A stretch of 64,000 bases of DNA from Anthoceros angustus (GCA_010909165.1 MU008172.1:1116001-1180000); one strand, 5' to 3'. Shown: positions 21,701 through 53,699, counted from the stretch's first letter. Made by a program: numbers and translations. Notes: generated by a model from the sequence alone, not told the origin.

Positions 21701-22751
21701 GACTTATACTTCGTGAGCTGGGACTCAAATTTGGTGCCGGACTCCATGGATGTACCCATGCATTACACTCCAGCTCCCAAAAAGCTTCTGGATCATTCGG
21801 TCGCCGTGGAGGTATGTTTGTCAGGCGCGATATCTTTACAAGCGAGACTTGATTGTGCTGCAGGAAAAACAGTAGTAAGGCCTGAGACGTTGTCGGTTTT
21901 GGCAGGAGATCCAGCAGTTCTTCCTGGATCACATGTTGAACGACAGCCTGGGCGTCATCGCTAACGCGCATGTGGTCCACGCTGATAGGTCTCCATTGCA
22001 AGCCCGGGACCCGAAATGTCTGGAGCTCGCCAAGTTGTTCTCCATAGCTGTTGACTTCCCCAAGACAGGCTGTCCCGCAGTCATGCCCGTCAACCTGCGA
22101 CCCGACGAGTATCCCGACTTCATGGAGAAGGGGAACAAAGAGAAAACTTACGTCTCCTCTGGAATCCTGGGCAAGCTGTACAGGGCAGTGAGAGATGCGT
22201 CCACCGAGCAGCAGCCCATTCCAGTGCTTACGAAATCCGACATCGCTGCAGCCTTCGACCGTGATCTCATTGCTGAGGGCTTCCAAGAATATGTGGCGGA
22301 GGCCGCCTTCCTGAAAAGTGAATACGATGCGAAACTGGTTGCCCTTATGAACCAATATGGCATTGAAACGGAGGCAGAGCTGGTAAGTGGCAACATCCTG
22401 AACCTCTCCCGCTACTACAAAAGAAGGACTGGAGATGTGAAGGAACGAATTATGTTTGCCATGGCCTCTCTGCGAAGACAGGTAAAGAGATGGTTTGATC
22501 ACGGCTACCATGTGGGCGAGGATTTGGAAGCAGAGAGCCACCCACAGGGGATGTCGCATGCTCTCGTGGGCTACACACCGCAGCACGACATCTACGCCAA
22601 AGCATCCGCCTGGTATGTTGTAACTTATCACCCTGATTATGTCAACGATTGTGAAGTCACGCCGTTTTTAAGCTTTCCCTGGATCCTGTACGACAAACTC
22701 ATTGCCTTGAAGACCCAAGCCAGGAACAATGACCCTTGCACCCAGATGTGA
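18727..22751 (+). CDS. RDR: RNA-dependent RNA polymerase, RDR-alpha (RDR1/RDR2-like); exons 18727-19281, 19509-21562, 21661-21811, 21906-22751
   Basis: N-terminal RRM (TVLVANIP...GYGFVQF), FLAFSSSQLRE, AARMGQCFSSS, FSDGIGKIS, SAYQIRYGGYKGV, AKNPCVHPGDVR, catalytic PHPNECSGSDLDGDLYFVSWD, AVDFPKTG, KASAWYVVTYHP. Confidence 0.97.
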
Positions 22752-27384: not shown

Positions 27385-27654
27385 TGTAAGAACTAGCTCA
27401 GACACAACACAGCCTGGGCAACACACAGGATCAACACAGTTTGCAGACACAAGCAGAGGCAATGGATGGCACACGCAATAGCACCACTGGCTTAGATAGG
27501 CTCCACAGTACACATCAATATGGTGCACAGGGTGCTACATATATAGCCCTTAGGCTAGGCAACTATCGAGGAGGTAAGCCCTAGACTCGAGAGTGCAATA
27601 TCCTAGTATATCCTAATATACTAGAGTAAGTAGCAGAGGATTGAATCTCTAACA
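27385..27654 (-). repeat. Copia 3' LTR (270 bp)
   Basis: tgtaagaac...tctctaaca, abutted by a polypurine tract (GAAGGGGGAG on the minus strand, 27655-27664). Confidence 0.93.
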
Positions 27655-30613: not shown

Positions 30614-30866
30614 TGTAAGAACTAGCTCGACACAACACAACCGGCAACGCATGTGATCAACACACATGCATACGGAGGCAATGAATGGCACACGCAATAG
30701 CACCACCGGCTTAGATAGGCTCCACAAGACATCAATATGGCGCATGTAGCTACATATATAGCCCTTAGGCTAGGCAACTATCGAGGAGGTAAGCCCTAGA
30801 CTCGAGTGCAATATCCTAGTATATCGTAATATACTAGAGTAAGTAGCATAGGATTGAATCTCAACA
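30614..30866 (-). repeat. Copia 5' LTR, copy 1
   Basis: Homologous to 27385-27654. Followed on the minus strand by PBS-like TGGTATTAGGCGG (30601-30613, resembling tRNA-iMet TGGTATCAGAGC) and flanked by TSD ATGTG. Confidence 0.9.
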
Positions 30867-32036
30867 ATGTGCTACCGGACATTGTCCCAACATCACTCAA
30901 AACAAAACTTCCTTCTTCGTAAAGGACCCGCAGACTGCATCGGTCAATGGTGCCACACGACATGAGATTTCTACGTAGGTTCGGTACAAACAGGCCCTTC
31001 CATTGCCTTGACCTCGCCGCCGAGCAACCGAGCCTGACTCCCCACACCCTCGACGCCTATCTCGCTATCATTCCCTAGGCGCACTGCCTTCTCCCTCCGT
31101 AGTCTTGAAGGAGCTCCTTATCCTTCACCATAAAGGATGTACATGCGTAATCTATCGCCGTGTATCATTTCGCTGTACGTAGCACGCGTGCGACATTTCT
31201 TCTCACAGCGTTGCCTCCAAACCTCACCTTTACTCTCACCCTCCGTGAGATGTGCGGTCTTCCGATCCTTGCAATCCTTCTCATAATGACCATACTTGAA
31301 GCATTTCCTGACCGCCCCTCTTCACTATTCTCTTGTCCTTCCGTCTCGAGGACTCCCTTGTCCTTGTTCCTTGTTCCGTCCCTTCCCTTGATGAACATCG
31401 CATGCTCCGGACTGTTGAAGATCCCGCCATTGGCCCAATCAAGTAGTCTCCTTCGCCAACATCTTAGAGGTGACCTCCTCCCATGTGAGAGTGTCTTGGG
31501 CTATTAGGAAATCTATGAACCCCGACCAAGCTTCGCATAGAACGATATAGAAACATCTTCGTATGTCCTCCTCGGATAGCAAAGCGCTAGTCGAGAAGGC
31601 ACATTCGTGAAAGGTGTCGATGTGCTTTCGCAAATCGCCTCCTCGAATACTTCAATGTCGCCACACGACAAAACAAGTGAAATACTTCACCGCTCCTTCG
31701 CCATATTTCTCATTGAGAAGATTCCAAATGTACTCCATGCCCTTGTCTGGTTCTCCGACCTTCACTGGACCGCCAGAGAGATTCATATAGGAGAGTCAGA
31801 CTTGTGGTCTCTCCGCATCCATTCTCTCGCCTCTCCCTCATCTTCGGTTTCGCTCTTGCCTCGGCAATGCCATACGCCCTCCGCCATCGCGTAACCTTCA
31901 TGGACCTTTTTCCATACATGGAACTCCGCTCCATCAAACACCCGCCCTCAAGGCCGCGGTGGTTACTGAGCCCATCGCCATCACAACTCCGTCCTCTCTT
32001 ATCAAGTCTCGCGATTAGTGTTCCCGCCTAATACCA

Positions 32037-32294
32037 TGTAAGAACTAGCTCGACACAACACAACCGGCAACGCATGTGATCAACACACATGCATACGGAG
32101 GCAATGAATGGCACACGCAATAGCACCACCGGCTTAGATAGGCTCCACAAGACATCAATATGGCGCACAGGGTGCTACATATATAGCCCTTAGGCTAGGC
32201 AACTATCGAGGAGGTAAGCCCTAGACTCGAGAGTGCAATATCCTAGTATATCGTAATATACTAGAGTAAGTAGCATAGGATTGAATCTCTAACA
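32037..32294 (-). repeat. Copia 5' LTR, copy 2 (part of a duplication)
   Basis: Same LTR, PBS, TSD and host flank as copy 1. Confidence 0.9.
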
Positions 32295-32405
32295 ATGTGC
32301 TACTGGACATTGTCCCAACATCACTCCGAAAACAACAACATCACTCCGAAATCAGAAGGCACATTCGCAACAGTGAAAAGATAGCCTGTTGCTGAAAGAG
32401 GCAGG

Positions 32406-34249
32406 TGTCGCGCCACAGCCGCATAGCAGGCATGAATACACATGTTATGCCATCAAAAAGATTCAACCACTTTCTACAGGACTTCGTGAATCACACCCAC
32501 AACCACATGAGTCACTACATCCGCATTCACACAACGCGCATAAATGGCAAAAATCACTCCATTTGAGCGGCTCTCCTCCTATGCACACACCACACTGGAT
32601 CACACACACCAAAAAAAACGCCTCGATCCGTCTGTTCTCTTGAATCGACATCAACAATCCACTCTAATGACGGATTGTCGACTTTTGTAGCCTACACCGC
32701 CGATCTTAATCACCGCCCGAATTCAAGGGCCGTGATCACGCCCGCACACGCCGGAGATCTTCGCCACGAGCCTTAATTATGCTTGTCCAGATTCTAAGCG
32801 TATGGCTCATGCCATGATGCCATCCTATCTCTACACTCACGCCATCACATTTACAAGATATGCATGCGCCTGGTGCCTACACCACTTATCCCACACACTT
32901 ACACCGACACACACACGTTATCACACCTGTGTCCTACCGCCTATCCTACCTCTATATGCCATGACAATGGCGCCACAGCCGCATAGCGGCATGAATACAC
33001 ATGTTATGCCATCAAAAGATTCAACCACTTTCTAAGGACTTCGTGAATCACACCCACAACCACATGAGCTGTCACTACATCCGTACCACAACGCGTACAA
33101 ATGGCAAAAATCACTCCATTTGGAGCGGCTCTCCTCCTATGCACACACCACCGCTGGATCACACACACCAGGTGCACCGAAAAACGCCTGGGATCTGTCT
33201 GGCTGTTCTCTTGAATCAGACATCAACAATCCGCTCCCAATGACGGATTGCTGACTTTTGTAGCCTACACCGCCGCCGATCTTAATCACCGGCCCGAATT
33301 CCGAAGGGCCGTGATCACGCCCGCACACGCCGGGAGATCTTCGCCGCTCAGCCTTAATTATGCTTGTCCAGTATTCTAAGCGTATGGCTCATGCCATGAT
33401 GCCATCCTATCTCTACACTCACGCCATCACATTTACGATATGCATGCGTGGTGCCTACACCACTTATCCCACACACTTACACCGGACACACACACGTTAT
33501 CACACCCGGTCCTACCGCCTATCCTACCTCTATATGCCATGACAAGTCACCCAACGCAGAGCAGTGCATGGATACACATGTTATGCCATCAAAAGATTCA
33601 ACCACTTTCTACAGGACTTCGTGAATCACACCCACAACCACATGAGTCACTACATCCGTACCACAACGCGTACAAATGGCAAAAATCACTCCATTTGAGC
33701 GGCTCTCCTCCTATGCACACACCACACTGGATCACACACACGTGCAGAAAACGCACGATCATGCTTTATTCTCTTGAATCGGACATCAACAATCCACTCT
33801 AATGACGGATTCGACTTTTGTAGCCTACACCGCCGATCTTAATCACCGCCCGAATTCAAGGGCCGTGATCACGCCCGCACACGCCGGAGATCTTCGCCAC
33901 GAGCCTTAATTATGCTTGTCCAGTATTCTAAGCGTATGGCTCATGCGGCCATGATGCCATCCTATCTCTACACTCACGCCATCACATTTACAAGATATGC
34001 ATGCGTGGTGCCTACACCACTTATCCCACACACTTACACTGGACACACACACGTTATCACACCCAGGTCCTACCTGCCTATCCCTACCTCTATATGCCAT
34101 GACAACTGTCGCGCCACAGCCGCATAGCAGGCATGGATACACATGTTATGCCATCAAAAAGATTCAACCACTTTCTACAGGACTTCGTGAATCACACCCA
34201 CAACCACATGAGCTGTCACTACATCCGTACCACAACGCGTACAAATGGC
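32406..34249. repeat. Terminal repeat array (+ strand): Y 32406-32548, X 32549-32966, Y ~32967-33105, X 33106-33544, Y ~33545-33680, X 33681-34104, ac, Y 34107-34249
   Basis: A ~565-bp Y+X unit repeated three times plus one extra Y (~143 bp) adjoining the element body. Confidence 0.92.
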
Positions 34250-35300
34250 CCCCCTGCCAAAGTCGGGCTGCTCGAAAGAACTGGTTGCGTTGTGTAAGTA
34301 CCACTTTGGCACTCATATGCCATAAAATCGCCGATAAAACCTCCGGAACATGCCGTCTCGAAGCTGTGGTTCAGACGGTTTATCATGCTCCATTCTTCCT
34401 GTGGCCAACAGCGCGGCCACACGCCGATCTTCTGGGTCAAAATATTCATCCACCTGCGCTTTGCCCAACCGCACCCGCTCCTTGGCTCAATGGCGAGCCA
34501 TGAGCTCCTCCTCTTCATCACTATCCGGTTCAGTCTTCACTCGAGGCAGCTGCGGGCCGTTCAAACCATTCACATAATATTGTTTTTCTATACACTGAGC
34601 CCTAAGAAACTCCCCCACATTGTCGTTGAGCAGATACCAAGATTCCAAAGTGGCCTCATCCCATTCCAACACTCCTGTGCGTAAGCAAGCAAACACCCTA
34701 TAAAAAGCTCGCGGGTAACCAATGGCAAAACGCCCCGCTTTCTCCCTATGCAGATGACTTAACCACACTTTCGACTTCAAATCACCGGCTTCTTTGTGCT
34801 CGACATTAAGAACCCTTCGTGGCCAATGATCAAACACCTGATGCATGAACAGATGATGTTCCAGTTTTCGGAATGCCCCTTCACAATAACTGGTCCATAC
34901 GAAGCTTTGCCTGTTCATGCCCCTTCCTGCCAGCTCAAAAAGATCTCGATGATCATAAGGAAAACTCTCAATGTTGCAGATCTCATGATGTGATTCTACA
35001 TACAGCAAAAATGCTTGCAACTCCAGAAATGTCTCGGGTCATTCGGGCTTGCCAGGCTGATACTTCCTTACCAAAGGCGTTTTCCATTTGTCTTCCCATG
35101 GCCTGTCTGGAAACTGTGGAACACTTGTGCTCATTCTCCGGAAGCATGACTTGCAAGTGTGGTCCGCTTCCATATCCATGTCAACCACCTGTGTTGATCC
35201 CAATGGGAATCCTTCACTTGATACTCTTTACAATTTGGAAAACGGGTGCCGCTAGTGTTGGTCAAACAACCATATGAACTGATTGATTTCTGGAAGACTA
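34250..35300 (-). pseudogene. Extra ORF of unknown function downstream of integrase; longest open segment 34487-35020
   Basis: 177-aa protein-like segment (FLLYVESHHEIC...YPRAFYRVFACL...KTEPDSDEEEE) in the element's sense orientation. Boundaries uncertain. Confidence 0.5.
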
Positions 35301-36084
35301 CCTATGTTTGCAACTGGCTTTGCAAAGCGAGTGTCAGGCCTGTTAATCAACACAAGCTATCCTGATTGAAATGACTGAATTCCAACTTCATCTCACCTGT
35401 GAGTCGTTCAGTCACTGTTACTTGCCGTTTATGCAGCAAACAGACCATGCACCCTCCACTGCTCGTGCTCATACCCAGATGCTTGATGCCATGACCACCC
35501 TAGCATCTGTTCTCCACGCCCCAGTCCTTCTGTGATCACCTCCTTCTCACTCGTCACTTGAGCTGCCTAGGGTCCCCATCTACAACCTACAACCTGACAA
35601 CAATTTGGATGATCGTTAGTCGTGCGCTCCGGCTACCTGATGCTCCATGTCAGACGCTTCCGCACTGGAATAAATCACCGCGGCGAATCGCCTTCCCGCA
35701 CACCCACACGGGCGGTTGCCGCAATCGGCCTCCTCCCGACATGCACTGTGACAACTCACAATCGCTTACCTTCCTCGCACCGCCTCTTGAGAACCGATGC
35801 ACTCAACACATGTACTTCTCCAGCAGATCTCCGACACTTCTCCAAGAAATCGCTGAATTCCCCAACCAACCGCAGAATCCTCTTGTTCCCGCTAATCCGT
35901 TGTTTACACTTGATCGCTCTCGCGCTTGCCGCCCATACTGCATGCCTCACATAACCCGTGTATCAATAAGGCAAATAACGGGCTTTATAGGCCTACCCTT
36001 CTTATTGACGTTCTTCGCACACCCACACTCTGAGTGCGTGTTTCATTCGGCCCCCCAGCTTCCTTTCGCCCTAACTTTTCCATC

Positions 36085-36230
36085 GTACATTTGTGACAAA
36101 ACCATTCTCCTTCTGGAATCGCCTTCAACGGTGGCCGAAGACAAAAGACATGATACCCTTGGTTGCACTGATCACACAATAGCATCAGTTCAGGATCAGT
36201 GATTTGACCACATTGTTCGCATGGCAGGTC
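36085..36230 (-). other. PHD finger at the integrase C-terminus
   Basis: CEQC...MLLCDQCNQGYHVFCLRPPLKAIPEGEWFCHKC is a complete C4HC3 PHD finger. Confidence 0.95.
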
Positions 36231-36397
36231 AACAGGTGGCTTCCATGCCTGTGGTTGTATCCGCGTGTCAAGATTCGGCAAGTGGCACGGGGCCAGATGC
36301 CGCATATGTTCCTTGCACCGGCGCCCGTCTTGCCCTTCCAACTCGATGACCCCTTGCTCACCAACGTTCACCACTCACAAAATTAACCGTCCCGTGC

Positions 36398-37300
36398 TCA
36401 CGTCCAAAGTACCAGAAGGACGGTGTTGCAAATAAAGTCACCTATTTCGAACTTTCTGGCCTTTGGTTTCCATGATCCTCCTCGTGTGAATGCGTACCTC
36501 AGCTGATCTCGGTGTTGCGCGATAGCCAGATTGTCCATTGCCATGGGTATCACCCGTTGTAACAACTTGGCCCAGTTTCGCAACTCTGAGCAGCATTCAT
36601 TCACATTTTGTGTCCAATCCACTGGTTTGGAATACGTGTCCGCCACTATGTTGGGTAGCACAACATTCCTGCCAAACATGATATAATAAGGATCAAGTTG
36701 CCTGTGGCTGCTCAGACATCGATTCTCAGAGCCCAAGGCAACATACGGTAGTAACTCATCCCAACAGTTAGGCTCGACCTCCGTGCAATACTTGCGAAGA
36801 GCATCCTTGAAAGTTTGCACCTTTCGCTAAACCATCACCGAGGATGATCCCGGATGCGCTATGATCTATCAAACTCCGATCTAACAACGCTTGGAATTCA
36901 CCAATTCGCTTCTCGATCCGTCAAGACCTCCGCATGCCTTCCATACCGCCAAAACACACTGTAGGAAAGCCCGTGCCGTGAACTGTGAAGTTCTGACTGG
37001 AAGGAAGGCCAATTCCACCCACTTGGAGAAGTGTTCTATCATAAGCATACAATGCTTGTTGCCTTGCTTGGTCAATGGTAGCTCGCATGAGGTCAACGGA
37101 CCATCGAAAGAACAATCCCGAATGGGCAGCGAATGCAACACCACATCCCGGCCGTTGAACCTCGCTTAACCGCATCAAGCAAAGACACCTTGCCACCACT
37201 CGCCGACATCTAATACATTCCTGCACCAAAATACGCACTCTTCAGCATATGATGCGTCCTTTTTACACCGAAATGCCCAAGTGTCTTGTGCACTTTACTC
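36398..37300 (-). pseudogene. Gypsy integrase (Zn finger + rve core), frameshifted
   Basis: HKTLGHFGVKRT, WSVDL, MIEHFSKWVEL, QTFKDALRK...WDELLPYVALG, PYYIMFGR, NLAIAQHRDQLRYA. Confidence 0.9.
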
Positions 37301-37619
37301 ACTATCTGTTCTCGTTCCTCTATAGGAGGAACCACTTTACACACTCCATGATCCGTCATTAATAACTTACCATCCCTCCATGTGTATCTCATGATTTTCC
37401 GTCGTAACTTTTGAATGGCGGCAGCATCCAGTCCAACTACCTGTCCTTCCTTCAATAGCTGAATAGCATGCCCATACTTCCATATGTCTCGTCCTCCCTC
37501 ATTGAGTTGTTTTCTTCCTTCCTGATGTGCGGCCATGAGTGCCATATACATGCTCGGCATGTAACGAGTATACCCAAAATCCTACCGCGCACCGGTCGTA
37601 TCCTTGTTATCAGACACTG

Positions 37620-37960
37620 GGTTTCTGCTAAGTCCATCAGCATTGTGGTGTACTTTGCCTGCCCGATGTACTATATGCATATCGTATTCTGACAGTAGCA
37701 ACGCCCACCTTGCGAGCTTGCCACTCAACTTCATGTTCATTAACAACAACGGCCGTGATCACGAGTTGGAAGCTCCGAACAAATAAATTAAGTGTAGAAC
37801 CGCCCCACACCAGCCTAAACATTCAATTAATGATGAGTAATTGGCTTCCGGAGTTGTTCGACCTACTGCATACGCAATCACTCTTTCTCTTCCTTCCTAA
37901 TCCACCTGCAAGGACGATTCCAGCTTGCACCCACTCAGATATGAGTGAATGGTTTGTCAA
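37620..37960 (-). pseudogene. Gypsy RNase H, frameshifted
   Basis: Fragments VIAY..RSN, DH..L, GKLARWALLLSEYDMHIVHRAGKVHHNADGLSRNP across frames. Confidence 0.85.
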
Positions 37961-37965
37961 AATCA

Positions 37966-38585
37966 GGCCGCTTGAGCATAGGCCTTTCTGACAACTGGTC
38001 CTTTAACTCTTGCCAAGCATGTTCATGTTTCGCTCCCCGCAATCGGACTCCCTTCTTCATCGATCACACTTTTGCAAGTGCGCTCATGTTTTGATGAATC
38101 GATGATAATAGTTGACGAGTCCTAAGAATGCTCAACGCGACGCCCTTGGTCTCGCATAAGATTGACACCTCGCACTTTGCTAGTTGCGGCAAAGACGCCT
38201 CCGCACAATCTTGTGACCCGATATTCTATCTCCTTGTAAGCAAACTTGCACTTCTTTGATGTGCCTTCCCCGTAACCGAAGCCTCTGCAGCAATGTTTCG
38301 AGGTGTTGAATGTTCTCCAAACCGTCGCGAACACTAAATGTCATCAATGTAACACTCACGAATGGCAATCCTTGCAACTCCAAGTCTCGCCACCACGAAG
38401 TAGATGGGCGCCAACCCAAAAGGCATCGCCTCCCATTCCCACAACCGTTTTGCCCCAAGGCCGTTTTGCATTTGTCTTCTTCCTCAATGACGATTTGATT
38501 GAAACCAGAGCTAAGTCCAACGTCAGAAATACTTGGCTTCAACGCGCCAAAGATTTCATCCGGGGTAGGCATGGGATATCGATCC
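37966..38585 (-). pseudogene. Reverse transcriptase, copy A; further copies at ~39135-39745 and ~40950-41575
   Basis: RYPMPTPDEIFDAIGEAKYFTTLDFRSGFNQI...KTAFW...MPFGL...CYIDDI...KCKFAYKEIEY...LRAFLGLVNYYHRFI, consensus of the copies. Confidence 0.92.
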
Positions 38586-39939
38586 TCGCTCGATCTTCAC
38601 ATATTTTCCATACATGAGTTGAATGCCCACTGCTTTTCCAATTGCTCCGCACTATTTGCAGATTTGTGTACTTGTCCCGACGGTTTGGAAACTCTCCCTT
38701 CACCCATCATCCATGCGACCTTCCTTTCTTGTCGACTTGCGTTAGTGGCTATTCCCACACTCACCAACCATTGCACACAAGTCGATCAAACGCTTGTCCC
38801 AAGTTTACATCCGAAGCTCGACACACCTCGCGTAGGTGCCGCCATCACAAACCCATCGCTGCTCGCCTACGATCGTGGGCTCCCCCACTTCCTCACCATT
38901 CATATTCAATACCATGCCCGCCCCACCTCGGCGAAGGCATATGACACCGACCAAAGGTGGGCCATGCTCTCCGGGCTCACCCACAATGTTGACAGGATAA
39001 TGTGGCAGCGTGTCCATCCTATTCACGCCACTGCCTCGCCTCCTCAAGGATCCCATCCAGGTTCCGCTTGCTTGGTGTGGTTAAACTTTGCCCGAGTATT
39101 TCCACACTCGCAATGTTCGCCCAAAATCAGCCGCTTGAGCATAGGCCTTTCTGACAACTGGTCCTTTAACTCCTGCCAAGCATGTTCATGTTTCGCTCCC
39201 CGCAATCGGACTCCCTTCTTCATCGATCACACTTTTGCAAGTGCTGCTCATGTTTTTGATGAATCGATGATAATAGTTGACGAGTCCTAAGAATGCTCAA
39301 CGCTGACGCCCGTGGTCTCGCATAAGATTGACACCTCGCACTTTGCTAGTTTGCAGACGCCTCGCACAATCTTGTGACCCGATATTCTATCTCCTTGTAA
39401 GCAAACTTGCACTTCTTTGATGCCTCTTAACCGGATACGCAAGAATGTTTCGAGGTGTTGAATGTTCTCCAAACCGTCGCGAACACTAAATGTCATCAAT
39501 GTAACACTCACGAATGGCAATCCTTGCAACTCCAAGTCTCGCCACCACGAAGTAGATGGGCGCCAACCCAAAAGGCATCATTCCCATTCCCACAACTGTT
39601 CTTTGCCCCAGAAGGCCGTTTTGCATTTGTCTTCTTCCTCAATGACGATTTGATTGAAACCAGAGCGGAAGTCCAACGTCGTAAAATACTTGGCTTCGCC
39701 AATCGCGTCAAAGATTTCATCTGGGGTAGGCATGGGATATCGCTGATCCTCGCTGTTCAGATCTTCACATATTTTCCATACATGAGTTGACTGCCCACTC
39801 GTGCTTTCCACCTGTTCCGCACTATTTGCAGCATTTGTGTACTTGTCCTGACGGTTTGGAAACTCCTCCCCTTCACCCATCATCTGTATGCGACCTTCCT
39901 TTCTTGTCTGACTTGCAGTTAGTTGTGTGGCTATTCCCA

Positions 39940-40850
39940 CACTCACCAACCACTGCACACAAGTCAGATCAAACGCTTGTCCCAGAAGTTTACATCTGTA
40001 AGCTTCCGACACACTCGCGTAGGTGCCGCCATCACAAACCCATCGCTGCTCGCCTACGATCGTGGGCCCCCACTTCCTCACCATTCATATTCAATACCAT
40101 GCCCGCCCCACCTCGGCGAAGGCATATGACACCGACCAAAGGTGGGCCATGCTCCGGGCTCACCCACAATGTTGACAGGATAATGTGGCAGCGTGTCCAT
40201 CCTATTCACCTGTTGTGACTGTCTGCCCTCCTCAAGGATCCCATCTAGGTTCCGCTTGCTTGGTGTGGTTAAATCTCGGTGCTGCCTGAGTATTTCCACA
40301 CTCGCAATGTTCGTCCAAAAACTGCGGAGACGATGAGCGTATGACCCTGTTTGTACCGCGTCAATGATGAACTCCTCTCCCAGCCAGCTTCTGATCTTTT
40401 CATAGCTTTCTTTTACATGGTCTCTCTTGTCGAAAGCTCCGCAAACATTCTCGCAGTAAATACCAACATGCCGGATTGCACCGCTGCACTTCTCTCAGAA
40501 TCCGTGTTACTTCCTCCGCCAACAGACACCGCTGTTCTCGCCACGTCCAAATTTTGGAGAAGGTCTTGCACTCCCATCCCGCAATCACCATGTCAACCGG
40601 CATCTTATTGCCTCGGACTGCGTGCTTTTCCTACCAACATCACATCGGGAAGTCCGGTCCGCACCCTCTTACGGCTTCCATGCTCGAAGCTCGACATTTT
40701 TGTAGCTTGATAATCCCGGATTTGGCCACCGCCCGAGTCTTCTCATCAATCTCTACACACGTATACTCCGATCCGAATCCCACATCGAAACACACTCCCG
40801 CTACTAATTCCTGAACACAACTCCATGAGGTGAATTCCTTGTTCATGAGC
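39940..40850 (-). pseudogene. C5 cytosine DNA methyltransferase domain (DNMT3-like) inside pol, copy B, frameshifted in this assembly
   Basis: Motifs in canonical order: I IHLMELCSGISSG (~40801-40835), II YTCVEID, IV VDMVIAGWECK (~40566-40598), VI (L)ENV (~40445-40453), VIII IIDAVQTGSYAHRLRSFWTNI (~40306-40369), IX EPTIV...AMG, X RCKLLGQAFDLTCVQWL (~39947-39997). Confidence 0.9.
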
Positions 40851-41739
40851 ACGCCATTAAATCACTTGGTTATCGATCCGTAGCTCCGACTCTCCCACGA
40901 TCGCCGCTTGCACTCCCGGTATACAGAGTGAACGGTTTGTCAAAATCGTGCCGCTTTGAGCATAGGCCTTTCCGATAACCGGTCCTTTAACTCCCGCCAA
41001 GCATGTTCATGTTTTGCCTAATCGCCATCGGACTCCTTCTTCATCGATCATACAATACTAAGTGCCGCCATGTTTTGATGAATCGATGATAATAGTTGAC
41101 GAGTCCTAAGAATGCTCTCAACGCAGCGACGTCCCGTGGTCTCGGCATAAGATTGACAGCCTGCACCTTTGCTAGTTGCGGCAAAGACGCCTCCGCACAA
41201 TCTTGTGACCCATATTCTATCTCCTTGTAAGCAAACTTGCACTTCTTTGATGTGCCTTCAACCCGAATCGAGCCTCTCGACAATGTTTCGAGGTGTTGAA
41301 TGTGTTCCTCCAAACCGTCAAAACACAAAATGTCATCCGTAACACTCACGAATGGCAATCCTTGCAACTCCAAGTCTCGCCACCACGAAGTAGATGGAAG
41401 CCAACCCAAAAGGCATCGCCTCCCATTCCCACAATGCTCTTTGCCCCGTAAGCCCATTTGTCTTCTTCCTCAATGACGATTTGATTGAAACCAGAGCTAA
41501 GTCCAACGTCAGAAATACTTGGCTTCGCCTAATCACCAAAGATTTCATCCGGGGTAGGCATGGGATATCGATCCTCATTGCTCGATCTTCACATATTTGC
41601 CATACATGAGTTGAATGCCCACTCGTGCTTTTCCAATTCCCGCACTATTTGCAGATTTGTGTACTTGTCCCGACGCTTGGAAACTCCCTTCACCCATCAT
41701 CCATGCGACCTTCCTTTCTTGTCTCGACTTGCTAGTTGT

Positions 41740-42605
41740 GTGGCTATTCCCACACTCACCAACCATTGCACAAGTCGTCAAACGCTTGTCCCGGTTTACA
41801 TCCGAAGCTCGACACACCTCGCGTGTAGGTGCCGCCATCACAAACCCATCGCTGCTCCCCACGATCGTGGGCTCCCCATCTCCTCACCATTCATATTCAA
41901 TACCATGCCCGCACCTCGGCGAAGGCATATGATCGAGCCAGACCACCGCAGGGCCATGCTCCGGGCTCACCCACAATGTTGACAGGATAATGTGGCAGCG
42001 TGTCCATCCTATTCAATTGCTGATCGCCCGCCTCCTCAAGGATCCCATCCAGGTTCCGCTTGCTTGGTGTGGTTAAACTTTGCCGTTATTTCCACACTCG
42101 CAATGTTCGCCCAAAATCAGGAGACGATGAGCGATGACCGCTTTGTACCAAGGCCAATGATGAACTCCTCTCCACCTTTTCATCTTTTCATAGCTCACAT
42201 GGTCTCTCTTGTCAAAGCTCCGCAAACATTCTCCAAGAATACCAACATGCCGGATTGCACACTTCTCTCGAATCCGTGTTACTTCCGCCAACAGACACTG
42301 CTGACCACGTCCACTTGGAGAAGGTCTTGCACTCCCATCCCGCAATCACCATGTCAACCGGCATCTTATTGCACCGTGCTTTTCCTACCAACATCACATC
42401 GTTAAGTCGGTCCGCACCCTCTTATGGCTTCCATGCTCAAGCTCGGTACATTTTTGTAGCTTGATAATCCCGGATTTGGCCACCGCCCGAGTCTTCTCAT
42501 CAATTTCTACACACGTATACTTCGTGATCCGAATCCCACATCGAAACACACTCCAGCACTACTAATTCGAACACAACTCCATGAGGTGAATTCTTGTTCA
42601 TGAGC
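41740..42605 (-). pseudogene. DNMT domain, copy C; a partial C-terminal copy A lies at ~38745-39125
   Basis: The same motifs recur: CGIRITKYTCVEIDEK, PVDMVIAGWECKTFSK, LENVCGAFDKRDHV, AHRL. Confidence 0.88.
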
Positions 42606-43179
42606 ACGCCATTGAATCACTTGTTATCGATCCGTAGCTCCGACTCTCCCACGATCGCTTCACTTCTTCCGCAATTGCCGGTGATTCGCCATACTTGCAT
42701 CTGTTGCTGTCGAACACGCTCTCTTTCCAAAGCTTCCTTCACGGTGGTGTACCACATACATGTCATTCGATGTGGTGCCTTCTTCCGACACCTCATGACG
42801 TGCCAGGTCCTGTGTCTCTTCCCACACCTCCTCTCGGTGAACACTTTGCCGCAAGCCGTGAATGCCAAGATACTTTGATCTTTCACCATGCCTCCTCATG
42901 TCCAGAGGAATTCTGGCAACATGTGTGAAATCTCCATCTCGCCATCTTGGCCTATAGAATGCCTGAGTGCGGATCCACCCCATGGCTGGTCCATGCGTGG
43001 CATCCGCCTCCTAACAACACATCATAATTTCGCATCCGAAACGACAATGCACTTCCACCACACATGCGTCGCCGCTACTTATACTCTATCCGATCGGATC
43101 GCGAGTCATCCCCATCACTGTTCTTTGGTACCGCATGTGGTGATCCGACTCACATGGCTTCAACTTGTCTCCATACATT

Positions 43180-44560
43180 GAGCGCCTTGCACCCGTGCCC
43201 CAAAGACCGGATCCGCACTGTCTACTAGCACACACTCCGGCAAAGCCATTGATGACCTCTCGTTCTTGGTTCTTCACCAATGCTATGCCACCTTTCCCCG
43301 GTCTGGTTTTAGATGGTCACCACGTAGGTGACAAGCCCGACACCGTGCTCAATTCAATGGCTTCCTTCTTAATCCAGCCCGCATTGCTTGTCCGAACGGC
43401 CAGCCCGACCCTGTGTCACGCAAACTTACCAAGGGTGCATCCATGGCTTTTTCTAACAGACTTCGTGATTCTGAGCTACCTCCTCCCGATGTGGTGCCGC
43501 CTCGCCCGAACTGTCAAGGATTTGGGCATTCTCAACTGGTTCCTACCCCCACCAGTCTTCACTTTCACATCCTTACCAAATCAATGCTTCCCTTTGATCC
43601 GACTTGACCTTCCACATCAACGCAAACACATCTTCGTCCGAATCATATGTTTCTCGCCGACGACATGTCCTTCTTTATGCTTACGCCATGGCCAACCGCC
43701 TTGCACCAGACTCACCCAAGAAGGCCTTCCGAGTGTAACTCACACCTGTCGCTTGTCTATTGTTCCATCTCCTAGGCCCTTGGGCTTGAGCTCAGATGGG
43801 CTTGCCAAGCGCCTGCAGCCGGCTTACCACACGCCCGCAAGCTTCTTTTTACTTTGACCCGCCAACACGATGCTCACACTCATACGCCTTGTGCGGCCCC
43901 TTACATCGTAAACACTTGTCAGACGTTTTGGAGCTCACAGCACTGTGGGCCATTTGGTCCTTTGACGGCGAATCCCTGCGTTGAGTGTTCACCTGCATGT
44001 GCTCGCGATAGTGGGACTTCCCATGCTGCTTATGGGTGTTCGAAGTACTGGCATGTCCTCTGACCACATTGTGCTCCTCCCAGTAGGCATTGGTGACAGC
44101 ATCTCCTTTCATAACTCTCTCGGCCATCTCGTAGGCCTGTTCCAACTCATAGTCTGCCCCATGTAACATATGCAGAAAGTTGGCGATCACCCTCCTCTGC
44201 CTTCCTGGCAAGGCTGCAATATATATTTGCGCTGCTTCCCTCATGGTTTTCACCTTGGTGTCTTTCACCACCGTGCAGTCAGATTGCATCTTAGTGGCTC
44301 ATTTGGTTTGATCACAAACTTGACAACTCCCGGATTTTCTCAATGGACGCCAATCGGAAACATCTCAAAGAAACTTGACGAACATTTCGGCCCACCGATA
44401 AGTGATAACCTCGATTAGATGAACTGATGAGCCCGGGTTCGTCATCATCGATCTTGGCAGCTTTCCTTGCCCGTTTCATTCGCAGCGAAGTATGAGCATC
44501 CTGCAAAATCTTTTCTTTACAATCACGATAGTGTTAAAGCTTCACCAGCCAGAAATGCGC
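43180..44560 (-). pseudogene. Gypsy gag (Zn knuckle) and start of the aspartic protease
   Basis: ORF 43849-44289 with CLRCKGPHKAYEC knuckle, a second knuckle remnant CKAVGH near 43685-43705, and VLVDS(G)AD protease-like motif near 43210-43235. Confidence 0.65.
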
Positions 44561-45235
44561 TCATCTTTCTAAGTGCCATCTCGTGCGTGAATTCGACTTA
44601 TATTTGAGCACCATCTCATCGATCGCCATCTAAATTTCTCTTCAAAATCAGCCGAGACATACTACCGTGTCTACCCGTGAACACATCATTTTTGCTGGGC
44701 GCTGGTTCATACTCCATCCTGGCGCCACCACCACTCTCTTCAAAATCAATGGATCTGATAGAGTGTGACTCCACTCAACCGACCACCGCCTCGGGAACCG
44801 AGGGAGGTCGTGCAATGTGGTTGAATGCTTCCGATTTCGGTGTGCTTTCGTTCATCCACCGACCGAGTAAAACACCATTGCCAATCCCTCCCCCTTCGAG
44901 AGACTATATAAGGCATTCCACAAAGTTGGTGCCGCCTCCCCGCGTCTAGTCCGCCAACCATGCCAGTTTGTCGATCACCTCATTCCAGAGGCGTGGCCAC
45001 AAATCACGGCTCATTCCCAGTTGGCCCACTCGAATGGGTCTCGCTCGCATAAACAAAGAACGAATAGTCCAAAGCGCTTTCACGGCAATCTACCATGGAC
45101 TTATCGGTATGGTCCACCGTCTTTGGATCATCGACTTCAGCGTCCTCCGTTTTCCGCCCGAATCTTGGCTCCTCTGTCGAACCCTTCGAGTCGCCTTGCT
45201 GCCTCGTGTGGCTTCACCAAGGGGATTGTTGATGC

Positions 45236-45661
45236 AAAATCACTCCATTTGGAGCGGCTCTCCTATGCACACACCACACTGGATCACACACCGTGCACAA
45301 AACGCCTGGATCCGTCTGTCGTTTTGAATCGACATCAACAATCCGCTCCCAATGACGGATTGCTGACTTTTGTAGCCTACACCGCCACCGATCTTAATCA
45401 CCGGCCCGAATTCCGAAGGGCCGTGATCACGCCCGCACACGCCGGAAGATCTTCGCCGCTGAGCCTTAATTATGCTTGTCCGTATTCTAAGCGTATGGCT
45501 CATGCAGCCATGATGCCATCCTATCTCTACACTCACGCCATCACATTTACAGTATATGCATGCAGTCAGGGTGCCTACACCACTTATCCCATACACTGGA
45601 CACACACACGTTATCACACCCAGGTCCTACCTGCCTATCCCTACCTCTATATGCCATGACA
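45236..45661. repeat. 5' terminal repeat X only (~426 bp)
   Basis: Matches X of the left array from 'aaaatcactccatttggagcgg' to 'tatatgccatgaca'. Y is absent here. Confidence 0.92.
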
Positions 45662-45962
45662 CAGGCAAGGGAGAAAATCGATGTGAAGGGCATCAATTGT
45701 GGCTCTTTATTCGCTTTTAGACATATTCCGACGAATCCTTTCTTGATACGACCTCGCAGCGTGTTGGGTATTGTGATTTCACACTGGGGACCATACACGA
45801 AGGCACGAACACTCACTGGTGGTTTTATTTCACAGGAGAAAAACTCCGACAGGCACAAACTCTGGTAAAACCCATCACACAGTCTACACACTGATAGATC
45901 TAGTACTGGACACACAAACTGGGAGACAGTTCCTTATTTGGAAGGGGGGCCCAGGCAAAAAC

Positions 45963-48900
45963 CTAAGCCTCCAAGTGACGGTCCCCTTGTTCACTCTTAA
46001 CAGCAGCCTGCAGCGTCTCCGTCATCATTCGAGCGGCTGCTTCCAACGACATTCCTTCCATGTTTGAGGCGCAAGATTTGTCGGCGTCGGGCCAATACTC
46101 GTCCGTCGTCAAAAACTGAAAATGGACATGTAACCAGGCATCGTGAGCTTAAACGACTACAGGAAGGGCAATGCGCGGAAGGAAATTTCAGCTAAACAGG
46201 CAGCGCTCACCTTCACTTGTAGCTGAAGAGATTTGACGTAGTTGATTGCTTTCTCCAGCATGGTTACCAAATCCACCTGCAAGGACGCAAGCTTACAGGT
46301 TAAGCAAGCTGGCGAGCTATCACTATAAAGCAAGCGGGAGTGTAGAAACTTGCGCACCTTGGAGCCGTTGGGAACGAGATCTTGCAGAACCTTGAGCCTC
46401 TCACTTATTCGCTCTCGCCGATGCTGCGACAAAGGGCAAGAGTGCAGAATGTGAGACGTGAGGTTCGAAATGAGCTCGACTAGCGGGCAATTGATCAGCC
46501 GTGCGATGCATTCAACCAGTTGACTTAAAGCTTACCCTTGCAGCGATGCTTTGCGGATCGTTGGCACTGCCCTGCCTAGCCCTTGGCTTGAGATTAGTAT
46601 TGAGCGCGGGACCTACGCTCTTGTGGCTGGCTGAAGTAGAAGTGGAGCACGCCTTGGTCCCGCCTGCGACAGCTGCTTGCACTTGCTGCCCCTGCCCCTG
46701 CCCCTTTGCATTGTCCTGCAATTCAAGCGGAATCAGCCTGAGCCACGGTGGAGTGACGCTCTCCGCGTTCATGAAATTAGAAATTTGCGCCTAATGAAGC
46801 AAAATACATGTAGGCAGTCAGGACGAGCTTACCTTAAGCCTCTTGCAGGCGGGATCCTGCGTGTCGTCCCCGTTCAGCCGCTTGCGCTGACTACACTCGT
46901 TGCTATTAACTTCCACACGGGTGGGGCTGACGTGAATATGATTGCCAGCAGTGGCGACTACGGCGCGCCCGCTGGTATGCACGGGCGCTAGATTATTCAC
47001 CTTGTTGGACTGCCAGGAACCAACGCCAGCAGCGGCAGCTACAGCCTTCCGGGCAGCCTGTGAGACATTGTCGGAATGGCTGGCTACCCACCCGGTGATG
47101 CTGCTGCTCAAGCTGTCCAGAGTCATGGGCTGGCAATAGCTGCTGCTTGCAATTGCTGATCCCAGGGGTAGCTCGAAAATATTTGCCGGCAACGACGTGG
47201 GCCACGACCGCTTGCAGTGAGAATTCCCCTTGTCGTAGGCATGCCCCATGTCGGTGCTCATGCACGGCGTGGCGTGCGTAGCATACTCCCCTTTCACTGC
47301 GACACTGGAGGTGGCGTCCGACACGACTCCCCTTGTGCAAGTGCTGATACCCAGAGACGACAAATTGGGAAGATTATGCTGACTCCGGATCCGCTGCCCC
47401 CCCTCCTCTTGGCTCGCTTCCAAACTCACTCCCTGTAGACTCTCCAGGAACGAGGTGCAGGCAACCACGTCTAAATGAGGTGTCGGAGAGGAGGACTGGG
47501 CATGTGGATGGCTGAATGCTCTGAGCGTGGCCATGGATCCAGAGCTGTTCTTGGTATCGGCGCGCGCACAGCTGGCGAAATGAGCATGGTCCTGAAAATT
47601 GGTCATCTGAATTCCAGCTCCGGATCCGTCGACGCCTGCACTGCTGCGCACTGCTGCATCTAGAACGGTAACTCGCGGAGAATCATCAGACGCTGGAGGC
47701 ACTCCCCCGAATCCCATCGGCTGTGACAGCTGAGAGTTAGCACAGGGCTGATGCACATGTACAGGGGGCCCGGGGTTGGATCCGCTGGCCGAGCCGATGG
47801 GGTAGGCAGGACGCACGCAATCCATCACTCCTCCTGATGATTCCAAGCTCCCGAACAAAGAATTGGACTGCTGCATGATGACGCTGCCTGGCCCGGGCGA
47901 GGGGACCCGGGCCTGCAGAGGCCTGGTGGACATCACTTGGGCCGTGGCCACCGCAGTTGCAGATGCTGCATCATGGCTTTCCGAGGCCTGCATGTTAAGC
48001 ACGCTGCGAGGGGAGTTCCCGGCGCCGGGACCATGACCCTGCGCGGCCGGGCGGGTACCGCTGCTGCTACCGCCCCGCGGAGGGGTGCAGAGAGGAGCCA
48101 ATGGCATTGGACCCTCTTCGTACTTGCAGCGTGGCCTCGACTCCTGGCCTGGTGAAGAGTCGCGAGGCGCTCTGGTGCAGGTGCTGCTCTCAGCAGGCCT
48201 AGGGAGGCTCTGACTCACCAACTGCATGGATATGGCCGGGGCTATTGGACTGACGGCAGCGCCACCATAACTGCATCTGGCGGCTCCGACGCTCAGCTCC
48301 TGGATGTCGTCTTCCAGAATCAATTCGGTTGGATCCAAAATGAAGCCCGAGTCGCCTGTAGCCGGCCACGACATGTCCACACGCTGTCTCTTGGCCCCGC
48401 CCGACAGGTCAGTCTGGGTGCCGGAGTGGACGCCGTCGCTTGCTCCTGAAGAGTGGCTCGCAGCATCCACGTCGCTAGACGTATGAGCTCCTGAGGGTGC
48501 ATCGCCCGAGCCCGTGAACGTGCAAGTGCCTTCGTCGATGTCGGCCCAGGCGGCGGCCCAGCTGGGGCAGTCTTCCGGCCAGCCGCACGACTGAATGAGA
48601 CTGCCGATGTCGCTGCTCAGAGTGTGCAAGTTCATACCACTCCCAGAGCCGGAGCCGGAGCTGGAGCCTGGCTGCGGAAAGCTGGGATGGCCATACAGGA
48701 AGGTCGAGGCCAATTGGTCGTCCGGACCCAAGGACGCGGACGCGGCCCGGAGCGTAGTCGACGATGACGGACTTCGAGCAGAAGGCGGCTGCAGGTTGAA
48801 GAAGGGCAGGCGAGGGTTGGCGCCATGCAGGAACACATCGGTTGTACCGTGCAACTGGGACTCGGCCAACCCTGTTCCCACTCCCACTCCTGCAAGGCTC

Positions 48901-49839: not shown

Positions 49840-51702
49840 GATGCAGGGATGTGGACTTACTTTATACTCCACCCGCAGAAATGAAAAGAGTGTTGGTGTT
49901 GCAGACTCGACTTCGCATCAAATGAGCCAGGCGCACTCGTTTGAGCTACTGGTTCACAGTCGGAATAGTGGCAAAGCACACATGAAAGTAACTAATCCCA
50001 GATTGATCAGGGTCAGCAGTCATAAGCCAGCCTTCCAGCAGGTGCCCTCAGCATAGTCTCAAACACACACTAGCTCAGCTTAGGGTGGGAGAGCAAAGAA
50101 ACGTGTGACCCTCGAAAGGTGCTCGCGTTGGGTGATGGTCTGGGCACAGTCGGAATATTATTTGCATCGGTAGAGTGGAGGAGCGTGTACGGGTGGGACA
50201 GAAGGCAGGAAAGGCATATTGATGAGGCAGGTCTGATTCAAGAGATTACTATCGGTGGGGGAGATATTTAATGTCTTCATCCTTGAGACTGAGGCTAGGC
50301 GGGGAGAGTGGAGGATGAGGTTGAGAAGACCCCTGGATGTTGCATTCACATCGGGAGCAAGAATGAAGAGAAGGGCAAGAAGAAACAGGACACCAAAGAA
50401 AACGAGGCTAGACGGAATATACAGAGGAAGAAGGGACCAGGGCACACCCTTGGGAAGGAGAAGGCAGATGAGGCCAAAGGAGGTAAGTTAATGGGCAGCA
50501 GCAGCAGCAGGAGTTGAAGACATAAAATAAGCAAGGGTGGAGTGGAGAGGTGTATTTACAGAGGAGAAGAGAGGAGAGGAGAAGACGGCGGTGCAAGAAT
50601 GAAGCTCAGGCGGACTTGGTCGGGACGTGTGTAGGTGGTGGCAGCCGCTGTGGAAGTATCAATCTTTGAGCAAAGCCCCTCGGAACCTTGTTAAAAACTG
50701 AACTGAGCTGAGCTGTTCCTGCACTCGATACTCCAGCTTGGGACTCGGAGGCGAAGATGATGTCGTGATGATGCAGGGATGTGGACTTTATACTCCACCC
50801 GCAGAAATGAAAAGAGTGTTGGTGTTGCAGACTCGACTTCGCATCAAATGAGCCAGGCGCACTCGTTTGAGCTACTGGTTCACAGTCGGAATAGTGGCAA
50901 AGCACACATGAAAGTAACTAATCCCAGATTGATCAGGGTCAGCAGTCATAAGCCAGCCTTCCAGCAGGTGCCCTCAGCATAGTCTCAAACACACTAGCTC
51001 AGCTTAGGGTGGAGAGCAAAGAAACGTGTGACCCTCGAAAGGTGCTCATCGCGTTGGGTGATGGTCTGGGCACAGTCGGAATATTATTTGCATCGGTAGA
51101 GTGGAGGATGTGCATGGGTGGGACAGAAGGCAGGAAAGGCATATTGATGAGGCAGGTCTGATTCAAGAGATTACTATCGGTGGGGGAGATATTTAATGTC
51201 TTCATCCTTGAGACTGAGGCTAGGCGGGGAGAGTGGAGGATGAGGTTGAGAAGACCCCTGGATGTTGCATTCACATCGGGAGCAAGAATGAAGAGAAGGG
51301 CAAGAAGAAACAGGACACCAAAGAAAACGAGGCTAGACGGAATATACAGAGGAAGAAGGGACCAGGGCACACCCTTGGGAAGGAGAAGGCAGATGAGGCC
51401 AAAGGAGGTAAGTTAATGGGCAGCAGCAGCAGCAGCAGGAGTTGAAGACATAAAATAAGCAAGGGTGGAGTGGAGAGGTGTATTTACAGAGGAGAAGAGA
51501 GGAGAGGAGAAGACGGCGGTGCAAGAATGAAGCTCAGGCGGACTTGGTCGGGACGTGTGTAGGTGGTGGCAGCCGCTGTGGAAGTATCAATCTTTGAGCA
51601 AAGCCCCTCGGAACCTTGTTAAAAACTGAACTGAGCTGAGCTGTTCCTGCACTCGATACTCCAGCTTGGGACTCGGAGGCGAAGATGATGTCGTGATGAT
51701 GC
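49840..51702. repeat. Tandem duplication, ~0.93 kb
   Basis: 49840-50772 recurs at ~50770-51702, near-identical, joined at 'gatgc'. Confidence 0.95.
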
Positions 51703-53699
51703 GGGGAGGTCCAGTTGGAAGCAATGCAATAGGAGCCGCCGCCGGCGGCCGGCTCCGGCTCCAGGCAACAACCACAGTTTCAAGATCTCCTACCCTGTCT
51801 ACCCTTGGAGGTGAAGGGGAGAAGCCGAGGGCTTGAAACCAGGCGAGCCCAGGTGAATGAGAGACCTCAGCCCCGGCTCCAAGCCAGCAGAAAGTCCCCG
51901 GCCCCGAGAGAAGCCGAGGCTCGCAGCTGGCAAGCCACACCGAGGAGCAGCAGGCCCCTGACCGCAGAGGCGCAGCCGCCGGCGTCCCAGGACAGGGTAG
52001 GGGGGACGCCCCCGCTTGTAGCCTTCATAAAAGTGCTTGTTTGGGTAGGAAGTGCGGGAAAGAGAGTGGGCGAATTAGGTTGGGAAGTCGGGTCCTGACA
52101 TCAAGCAAGGATAGGGGATGGGCAGGGCAGCTTCTGGGTGAGCGAGGGGAGTCCAATCCCAGTAGGCTGCCCGACACTAGAGTTGCTAGGGCTGTGTAGC
52201 TGGAACAAGAGGGTGTAGCTAAGCTATAACGTTCAGGGCTCAAGTCAAGAGCTGGGCTGAGCACACCTGGCTAAGTGTATGTCTAGAGCTGAAGAGGTGT
52301 GAAAGTAGACTAGCTAGTAGTGCACGGGGGACCGACCCCGGCACGGCCCAGCGCACAAGAAAAGGCGATAAAAGATTTCTAGGAGCTAGTGGTGGGAGAG
52401 GAGAAACTTGCTTGCTGCTGCTGTTTCAAGTCGTAGAGGACTTGCTGAAGAGCGCGCGCAAGTATTGCAATCCTACTCGTCACTTCGGCTGTCACCCCGT
52501 AGCCACCCCCTAACACCTGCAGTCCTTTCAACCCATTGCGCCGTCAGAGCAGTCCGCGAACTGAGAACCCGAGCAGAAACTAAGGCGGCGGCGGTGGAGG
52601 AGTTTAGCAGGAACCGGCGAGGACAGGAACAGCAGAGCAGACGGACTTGTGTGCGAGTGCGAGAGACATGAAAGACATGGTCTAGGTTGGTGGCGTCAAG
52701 GGATGCGTTGGCTGCAGCGGCAGCAGTACAGCGTTGGAACACGACAAGATAATGGGTGGGAGATGCAAAGATGCGGAAGCAGGCGCGCTCGCAAGCAACC
52801 TCGAGTGGTTGCAACCGAGTTCAAGGGCCGACGGAGAAAGAGGCGGAGGATCCAGGTGAAGGGCAGGCACACTAGCGAGACGTACGTAGTCTGCTGCAGA
52901 AGCTCTCCACCGTTGTGACCAGGTTGCTGACAGCAGAGGTCGGGACAAGGGTGGAGCAGCAGCCTAGGCCTGAAGCAGGTAGGTGGTGGAAGACGGAGTG
53001 AGCCTCGATGTGGGAAGGGAGAAAAGCGGGAGGCTCTGAGAGAAGAGTTGGGGTGTGAAGCAGCAGCTACAGAAGATCCAGAGCATAGGTTGAAGGTCGG
53101 GTAGCGGCGTCCATGGCTAGGGGGTGGGAAGCTGGCGACAAACCGAGCGGTGCGACGAGAGGAAGAGGCACGAAGATTGTGACTAGACGGGGCAAGCTTG
53201 GAAAAAGTTGGCAAGGCTTGCACAGACACAGTGAGGAAGGCCTAGGCCAAGGCGAGTGAATCTCCACGGCACGGCACGGCGCAGCGGAAGCAAGGAGGCA
53301 GCTTGCAAGGAGCAGCAGCGAGCGAGCGAGAGCAGCGGCGGCGACGAGCGGAAGAGAGGGGCTAGCGAAATGGCGAGAAGGGGGCACACACGCACGCGGA
53401 AGGAGCGAGAGACCGAGAGAGCGAGAGGAAGGAAGGCGAAGGCGCGGAGGAGGGAGCGGGGGAGCGGACAGGCGTGGGCACCTTAACAGGGGCCCGGGGC
53501 CCGCGCGGGGAGGGGAGGGAAGGGAAGGTGGTAGACAGAGGTGAGAGAGTGAAGGGTATCCACCCACTGGGTCGAGGTGTCAGACTGGTACTACAATGCC
53601 GTTCCGTAGGAGAATAGAAAGGGAAAGTGATGCCGATGGATGGAAGGGAAGGTAAGGGAAGCAAAAGGAACGCCCGCGCGTTGACTCCAAGTATCAACG

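Follow-up and report, generated by a model that had tools for sequence, protein, structure and literature searches.

A DNMT3-like cytosine methyltransferase and a PHD finger in the polyprotein of an apparently dead Gypsy retrotransposon from a likely seedless land plant

Introduction

Whether a land-plant retrotransposon can carry its own DNA methyltransferase is the question raised by this locus. The window (the whole stretch of DNA analysed here, 64,000 nucleotides) contains an element in which a sequence-only reading had stitched together, across frameshifts, the motifs of a DNMT3-like cytosine-5 methyltransferase (C5-MTase) and had placed them between the protease and the reverse transcriptase (RT) of a Gypsy retrotransposon. 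That the element is a Gypsy retrotransposon with a DNMT3-type domain is almost certain.

Elements of this kind are already known from algae in print: the accessible text of PMC5890265 (de Mendoza et al. 2018) describes KnitGypsy-Dnmt3 from Klebsormidium nitens only. New here are a likely bryophyte host, the breadth of the family across green algae, two domain orders that track the tree, a Glu-Cys catalytic loop and a PHD finger. The preferred reading, considered likely as a whole, is that a dead Gypsy copy sits in the genome of what is probably a seedless land plant. Its polyprotein places a DNMT3-like domain between protease and RT and adds a PHD finger behind integrase, and intact relatives would probably package the enzyme and methylate their own new DNA.

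Layout and boundaries of the element

The features of the element are given below from 5′ to 3′ on the minus strand.

32406..45661 (-): whole Gypsy element, 13,256 bp as assembled, termini TGTC...GACA; ends and flanks inspected
45662..45665 (-): 5′ copy of the 4-bp target-site duplication (minus-strand CCTG)
45236..45661 (-): 5′ repeat A, about 425 bp, no B after it (self-BLAST, 88-90% against three 3′ copies)
43852..44298 (-): gag-like ORF piece with a Cys/His knuckle at its end (translation; no Pfam match)
42897..43289 (-): aspartic protease, frameshifted (36.4 bits against a maximum of 18.7 in 60 shuffles)
41807..42590 (-): DNMT3-like domain, copy C, more damaged, directly 3′ of the protease (47.1 bits for 42549-41807)
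40918..41588 (-): RT plus the beginning of RNase H, copy C, lacking the RT N-terminus (142.5 bits, profile 116-357 of 456)
39923..40841 (-): DNMT3-like domain, copy B, the best kept of the three, with motifs I-X (195.0 bits)
39740..39748 (-): deletion junction (about 39744), with loss of about 105 profile positions from the linker and the RT N-terminus; the same in copies A and C
39128..39757 (-): RT, copy B (129.4 bits; PF00078 E 1.6e-4)
38741..39126 (-): C-terminal DNMT part, copy A (53.3 bits)
37672..38596 (-): RT with the whole of RNase H, copy A, leading directly into integrase (156.1 bits, profile 117-456)
36464..37413 (-): DDE integrase with H2C2 zinc finger (276.3 bits; PF17921 E 8.9e-8)
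36087..36221 (-): PHD finger 3′ of integrase (PF00628 E 6.3e-12)
34487..35190 (-): extra 3′ ORF, start approximate (translation)
32406..34249 (-): 3′ repeats B-A-B-A-B-A-B, B about 143 bp, with a short purine run before them (self-comparison)
32402..32405 (-): 4-bp target-site duplication, 3′ copy

The Ty3/Gypsy order of protease, RT, RNase H and DDE integrase is present, as are TG...CA ends and a 4-bp target duplication (4-6 bp expected), and the earlier assignment to Gypsy stands. The ORF piece at 43852..44298 is probably gag, to judge by its position. Six-frame translation also finds a motif I piece just upstream of the aligned part of copy C (42549-41807).

The DNMT-RT block occurs about two and a half times, with RT 3′ of each DNMT copy. 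The protease comes just before the first DNMT, and the last RNase H passes into the integrase, so the true order is protease-DNMT-RT-RNaseH-integrase-PHD. The proposed position of DNMT between protease and RT thus holds as an order, but directly adjoins the protease only in copy C; copy B stands after copy C's RT-RNaseH because of the duplication.

Two equal LTRs, one per end, are absent: A lies at the 5′ end and the B-A-B array at the 3′ end, where a single A-B unit would yield an A...B-A-B split-repeat layout. Assembly duplication makes the count of 3′ units uncertain. At the first B/A junction (34104-34107), two bases lie between the CA end and the TG start, as in an uncut integrase attachment site. 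The split repeats would suit a circle with two repeats that is opened at the B/A junction and then integrates; the two-base CA/TG spacer agrees with this reading, as does the purine run that precedes the first B.

The extra 3′ ORF (34487-35190) has no Pfam match and no match to the tails of relatives. A SUKH/Smi1-like identity was considered and not accepted, all Atlas leads being below 0.9 (best 0.88).

The methyltransferase domain

Six-frame translation of copy B gives C5-MTase motifs I, II, IV, VI, VIII, IX and X in order, on the minus strand and in three frames. Against a DNMT profile of 330 positions, built from 137 full-length related domains, copy B aligns over positions 1-330 (window 40841-39923) with 195.0 bits, 7 frameshifts (written X) and 0 stops; 40 triplet shuffles reach a mean of 16.1 and a maximum of 20.9 bits, and the opposite strand 15.1. 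Copy C scores 47.1 bits (profile 19-303) and copy A 53.3 (190-330), with null maxima of 22.4 and 21.0. The motif series claimed across frameshifts is therefore all there. Relatives were found with the sole open piece as query (138 aa at 40081-40494, covering motifs VI and VIII), so the match over motifs I, II, IV and X, which lie outside this fragment, is not circular.

Taken alone, the 138-aa ORF has no Pfam match (E<=0.01) and no match to a solved structure (E<=10), and PF00145 is absent from the Pfam scan of 101 of the 165 window ORFs of at least 100 aa; Atlas ranks PF00145 first for this open piece (score 0.93). Among the 33 relatives scanned, 17 match PF00145, 15 of them above the curated cut-off. 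The ranking among known methyltransferases was made with a profile of 30 relatives, the window fragment by itself matching no solved structure: this family profile finds DNMT3A (E 4e-26) and DNMT3B/3C, then DRM (2e-14), HhaI (3e-9) and DNMT2 (8e-3), and DNMT1 is absent among its 55 solved-sequence matches. The DNMT3-like character proposed earlier is borne out at this level.

Copy B retains 38 of 48 strongly conserved columns, including the catalytic Cys, ENV and both motif-VIII arginines, all of which are kept in 35-37 of the 37 clade relatives. Its departures are local. Next to the catalytic Cys it reads Lys-Thr, versus Gln-Gly in 37/37 clade relatives; motif I has Cys for Phe (0/37 in its own clade, 17/124 in the other); and the sequence just 3′ of motif IV is garbled. 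The Glu before the catalytic Cys had been read as a change from PC to EC in this copy. It is instead the commonest form of the family, found in 120 of 195 full domains (Pro in 64) and in all 19 DNMT-before-RT domains, and both forms occur in both DNMT clades.

The domain is intronless, unrearranged and inside Gypsy pol, and it runs on into the RT linker. Features of host genes (a C-terminal DUF3444, rearranged DRM motifs, multiple exons) were looked for in the window domain and none was found.

The PHD finger

The best solved relatives of the PHD finger (among the best 60 of 69 matches) are those of ATXR5, KDM5 PHD1, CHD4, DPF3, BAZ2A and UHRF1, which are readers of unmethylated H3K4. The cage position is Gly in the window, as in 92 of 101 relatives. 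Animal DNMT3 proteins likewise pair a reader with a writer, in their ADD and catalytic domains. Within the 23 DNMT-before-RT proteins, PHD is retained in just two. The Selgy clade was considered as a PHD carrier and set aside, the accessible text of PMC6317226 holding no PHD.

State of the copy and quality of the assembly

None of the three blocks has the RT profile positions up to 115. A search for this N-terminus elsewhere in the window gives at best 18.9 bits, which is background level, and a scrambled order was rejected as the cause, since the sequence is found nowhere else in the window. From the DNMT end to the first RT motif there are about 59 codons, versus 142-228 in 17/17 relatives measured. 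One X1 short-read contig (depth 34.5) tracks the linker to 39744 and then turns into other sequence; two more carry other sequence upstream of 39744 and track RT from there on. Related copies therefore hold the missing RT part, as X1 contigs continue past 39744 on both sides. The deletion appears to be real, and a copy lacking the N-terminal part of RT is predicted to be dead, unable to copy itself.

Over the 1,785 bp of flank at 45716-47500, a further X1 contig (depth 8.85) shows 21 gaps and no substitution. X1 is accordingly taken, on this match, to be the same organism or nearly so, and the 21 gaps mean that the window carries indel errors. As a rough guide, most listed element pieces have X1 depths of 25-57 (9-44 for contigs with the 3′ ORF), and related pieces of RT, integrase and the 3′ ORF stand at about 3-6 times flank depth; one contig follows the host flank to within 55 bp of the element. 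Thirteen X1 contigs fall in 39450-43400, none 99% alike; the DNMT core is barely covered at 85%/80% likeness, which permits no inference either way. The run search returned 1 DNA run and no RNA run among its matches.

Near-identical tandem blocks of 0.9-1.9 kb, differing mostly by indels, lie at 2089-5649, 29455-32342, 37914-42658, 49840-51710 and 57430-61155. Gap openings exceed substitutions in 9/9 tandem near-duplicate pairs, versus 6 gaps and 14 substitutions in the LTR pair of a neighbouring copia element, and such blocks occur alike in host, copia and Gypsy DNA. They are probably long-read assembly duplications, and the triple copy and most frameshifts appear to be assembly error. Copies A, B and C, two of which the sequence-only reading had meant to combine into a consensus, are probably products of assembly and not independent of one another. 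Dating by comparison of the 5′ and 3′ repeats A was abandoned, their 15-48 substitutions/kb being in the same range as the probable artefact copies. The CpG observed/expected ratio of the element (0.88-0.92) resembles that of the neighbouring copia (0.94), so the element bears no special methylation scar.

Relatives, domain orders and phylogeny

The 138-aa piece has 263 relatives at E<=1e-3. Of 33 scanned (26 long and 7 short, from 150 listed), 26 have RT or integrase. Among 348 proteins examined, 328 contain the DNMT domain: before RT in 23, after RT in 95, directly before integrase in 43, and with neither in the record in 167. Because 161 of these 328 also hold RT or integrase, the domain is a family trait, as had been supposed, and not a one-off capture.

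All named relatives are green algae (Closterium sp. NIES-53/54, Scenedesmus, Monoraphidium, Chromochloris, Haematococcus); no named land-plant protein occurs among the relatives, and no protein named Klebsormidium among the matches. In Closterium the DNMT precedes RT, and in chlorophytes it follows RNase H. Relative P0322 (2,358 aa) has the order of the window, protease-DNMT-RT-integrase-PHD, in one open frame.

The FastTree DNMT tree, made from 161 non-redundant domains of the 195 plus the window, and without host DNMT3 or KnitGypsy sequence, splits the two domain orders with support 1.0 and places the window with Closterium in a group of 38 of 162 tips. The RT tree (69/97 rows, 1.0) and the integrase tree (91/121 rows, 0.925) agree, both placing the window in the DNMT-before-RT set. 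In an IQ-TREE check with 48 rows, the clade split has support 92, no branch of at least 95 holds the window, and the five nearest rows all belong to clade 1. The end branch of the window is long (1.08), and its closest relatives are 33-38% identical over DNMT, 48% over RT and 45% over integrase; at such identities no recent donor is seen.

Two further observations concern these relatives. A subgroup of about 1,230-1,340 aa (P0315-P0320, P0373, P0374) has a protease and a Pro-Cys DNMT and ends about 100 aa later without an in-frame RT. A G-patch domain lies near the DNMT in the chlorophyte-type relatives P0032, P0393, P0409 and P0410.

Genomic neighbourhood and host

The host assignment draws on the genes around the element. 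An RNA-dependent RNA polymerase (RDR) gene of the RDR1/2-like type lies at 18610-22751, 10 kb from the element. Its best 120 named matches, of 1,750 matches in all, are all land plants (top named lycophyte 52%, moss 49%), and algae, hornworts and Selaginella do not figure by name among these 120. In a 28-row tree without algal outgroup, hornwort or Selaginella, the gene falls among bryophytes and lycophytes (0.978), beside a liverwort and on a long branch. GC content near 50%, short introns and dense genes fit a hornwort, for which the accessible text of PMC7027989 gives 49.6% GC and a mean intron of 173 bp. The land-plant host claimed at the outset is therefore well in keeping with the window: at the level of lineage, the host is very likely an embryophyte and, somewhat more probably than not, a hornwort.

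The Gypsy element lies about 300 bp past the stop codon of a bHLH gene (PF00010, 45960-46600), which we presume to be of RSL class I from its appearance. At its other end, about 110 bp from the Gypsy 3′ end, starts the copia element (27385-32294; LTRs 27385-27654 and 32037-32294), whose 5′ part is duplicated. Compact host genes at 6715-7176, 10694-11629, 14537-14932 and 25866-27139 encode a TFIIB-type zinc ribbon, Rpn13, a D27-like protein and a purple acid phosphatase. An AT-rich array of 96-98 bp repeats (3155-5805) is itself within a duplicated block, and no tRNA genes were found in the window.

Comparison with described systems

The closest described system is KnitGypsy-Dnmt3, compared here through the accessible text and the Fig. 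4c legend of PMC5890265, its DNMT position in pol being shown only in the figure. Both elements have an intronless DNMT3-related domain with canonical motif order inside Gypsy pol, and both combine DIRS-like split repeats with Gypsy domains, the window's layout fitting the Fig. 4c legend. The window differs in its likely embryophyte host, its PHD finger, its extra 3′ ORF and its apparently dead state. 'PHD' has 0 occurrences in the text and supplements of PMC5890265 that were searched. The sequence-only reading mentions neither the PHD finger nor the split repeats, which are the best links to the known element.

SymbioDIRS-Dnmt3 of dinoflagellates is likewise a retrotransposon-borne DNMT3 with split repeats, and among these domains it alone was found, in the yeast test of PMC5890265, to produce de novo CG methylation. 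It differs in being a DIRS element and an independent capture according to that paper, whereas the window has a DDE integrase and a target duplication. The sequence-only reading had named Klebsormidium and dinoflagellates as the precedents; kinship with the Klebsormidium kind holds, but the family extends through green algae well beyond these two lineages.

Among the algal relatives, Closterium sp. NIES-53/54 pol (P0061, P0323) and P0322 share the DNMT-before-RT order, the Closterium proteins lacking PHD. Chlorophyte pol proteins (Scenedesmus sp. PABB004, Monoraphidium neglectum, Chromochloris, Haematococcus) share the C-terminal PHD but have DNMT between RNase H and integrase. All these relatives, which look unpublished, belong to the same DNMT clade or its sister, with identities of 30-48%. 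Host plant DNMT3/DRM (Yaari et al. 2019, PMC6453930) share the DNMT3-type catalytic domain, in canonical order as in DNMT3; in the accessible text, however, the DNMT3 of non-flowering streptophytes has a C-terminal DUF3444 and DRM has rearranged motifs, neither of which is seen in the window.

In PMC12344493 the phrase 'streptophytes and dinoflagellates' is repeated; its accessible text and table do not include Anthoceros, Marchantia, Closterium or Scenedesmus, and its supplementary trees may show more. The accessible text of PMC10952607, PMC7027989, PMC11982613, PMC6317226, PMC8557442, PMC6453930, PMC5182422 and bioRxiv 10.1101/2021.11.30.470311 contains no such land-plant element. No report of a DNMT-carrying Gypsy in land plants was found in print, subscription papers, theses, Repbase/Dfam and figure panels lying outside the scope of the search.

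Proposed mechanism and alternative explanations

In intact relatives, the DNMT would be made within pol, packaged in the particle and freed there by the protease. The freed enzyme would write 5mC on the cDNA before or at integration, and a new copy would thus enter a methylated genome already marked, either passing as host DNA or setting its own silencing; both ideas appear in the accessible text of PMC5890265. The PHD finger, resembling readers of unmodified H3K4, might steer the integrase to inactive chromatin, and PHD and DNMT together would form the same reader-plus-writer pair as the ADD and catalytic domains of animal DNMT3. Active methylation of their own cDNA by intact relatives is put at slightly under an even chance.

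It is unlikely, though worth serious weight, that the domain has instead been retained as a module that binds nucleic acid or SAM, or that it works on RNA, with no DNA methylation, the Glu before the catalytic Cys marking the change. The prevalence of this Glu (120/195 full domains, 19/19 DNMT-before-RT domains) and the local departures in copy B point that way, as does the yeast test in the accessible text of PMC5890265, in which the Klebsormidium Gypsy domain gave no methylation. The authors called this result inconclusive; human DNMT3B was negative in the same test, but dinoflagellate retro-DNMT3s (DIRS) were active and produced de novo CG methylation. Retention of the catalytic Cys in 159 of the 161 tree rows, of the Glu of ENV in 160 and of the motif-VIII arginines in 157-160 also argues against a mere binding role, as does the presence of both Pro and Glu forms in each clade. 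About equally improbable is an algal source, with no old land-plant lineage of elements: either a soil or freshwater alga passed the element on horizontally, or the window is itself from a charophyte alga. All named relatives are indeed algae, and the host RDR test was made without algal outgroups; yet the closest relatives are too distant, at 33-38% (DNMT), 48% (RT) and 45% (integrase), for a recent donor to be seen, no alga is among the best 120 named RDR matches, and in X1 the contig with host flank to 55 bp of the element and the related pieces at about 3-6 times flank depth are likewise evidence against it.

A one-off capture of a host DNMT3 into an ordinary Gypsy, or an assembler chimera, is largely refuted and very improbable. 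The many assembly duplications in the window are in its favour. Against it, the domain has no introns and no host C-terminal domain, protease, DNMT, RT, integrase and PHD follow in that same order within a single open frame of P0322, the DNMT, RT and integrase group with the same relatives, and the X1 contig of depth 34.5 contains the linker 3′ of the DNMT. The preferred reading of a DNMT3-carrying Gypsy family also allows a wider history, which is offered tentatively and is rather less probable than not. DNMT3-Gypsy may be an old clade of the whole green lineage (chlorophytes, zygnematophytes and bryophytes), in which the DNMT moved once, from behind RNase H to before RT, with mostly a Glu-Cys loop, a writer joined to a reader of unmodified H3K4 and integration from a circle cut inside the repeats; it would have been carried onto land and would write 5mC on its own DNA in land plants.

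Significance

The window copy, being apparently dead and poorly assembled, is a pointer and not a test object. Intact relatives are plentiful in algae, and with their natural Glu and Pro forms and both domain orders the question left in 2018, whether the Gypsy DNMT is active and on what, can be tested directly. For the land-plant side, the accessible text of PMC10952607 reports that CHH methylation is nearly absent in Anthoceros agrestis and that its transposons carry CG and CHG marks; a host of the hornwort type would therefore be a clean background for the contribution of an element's enzyme. If land-plant transposons do carry their own de novo methyltransferase, part of the transposon methylation of bryophytes might have a source other than host CMT, DNMT3 or RdDM, and mobile copies would be among the DNMT3 genes counted in such genomes.
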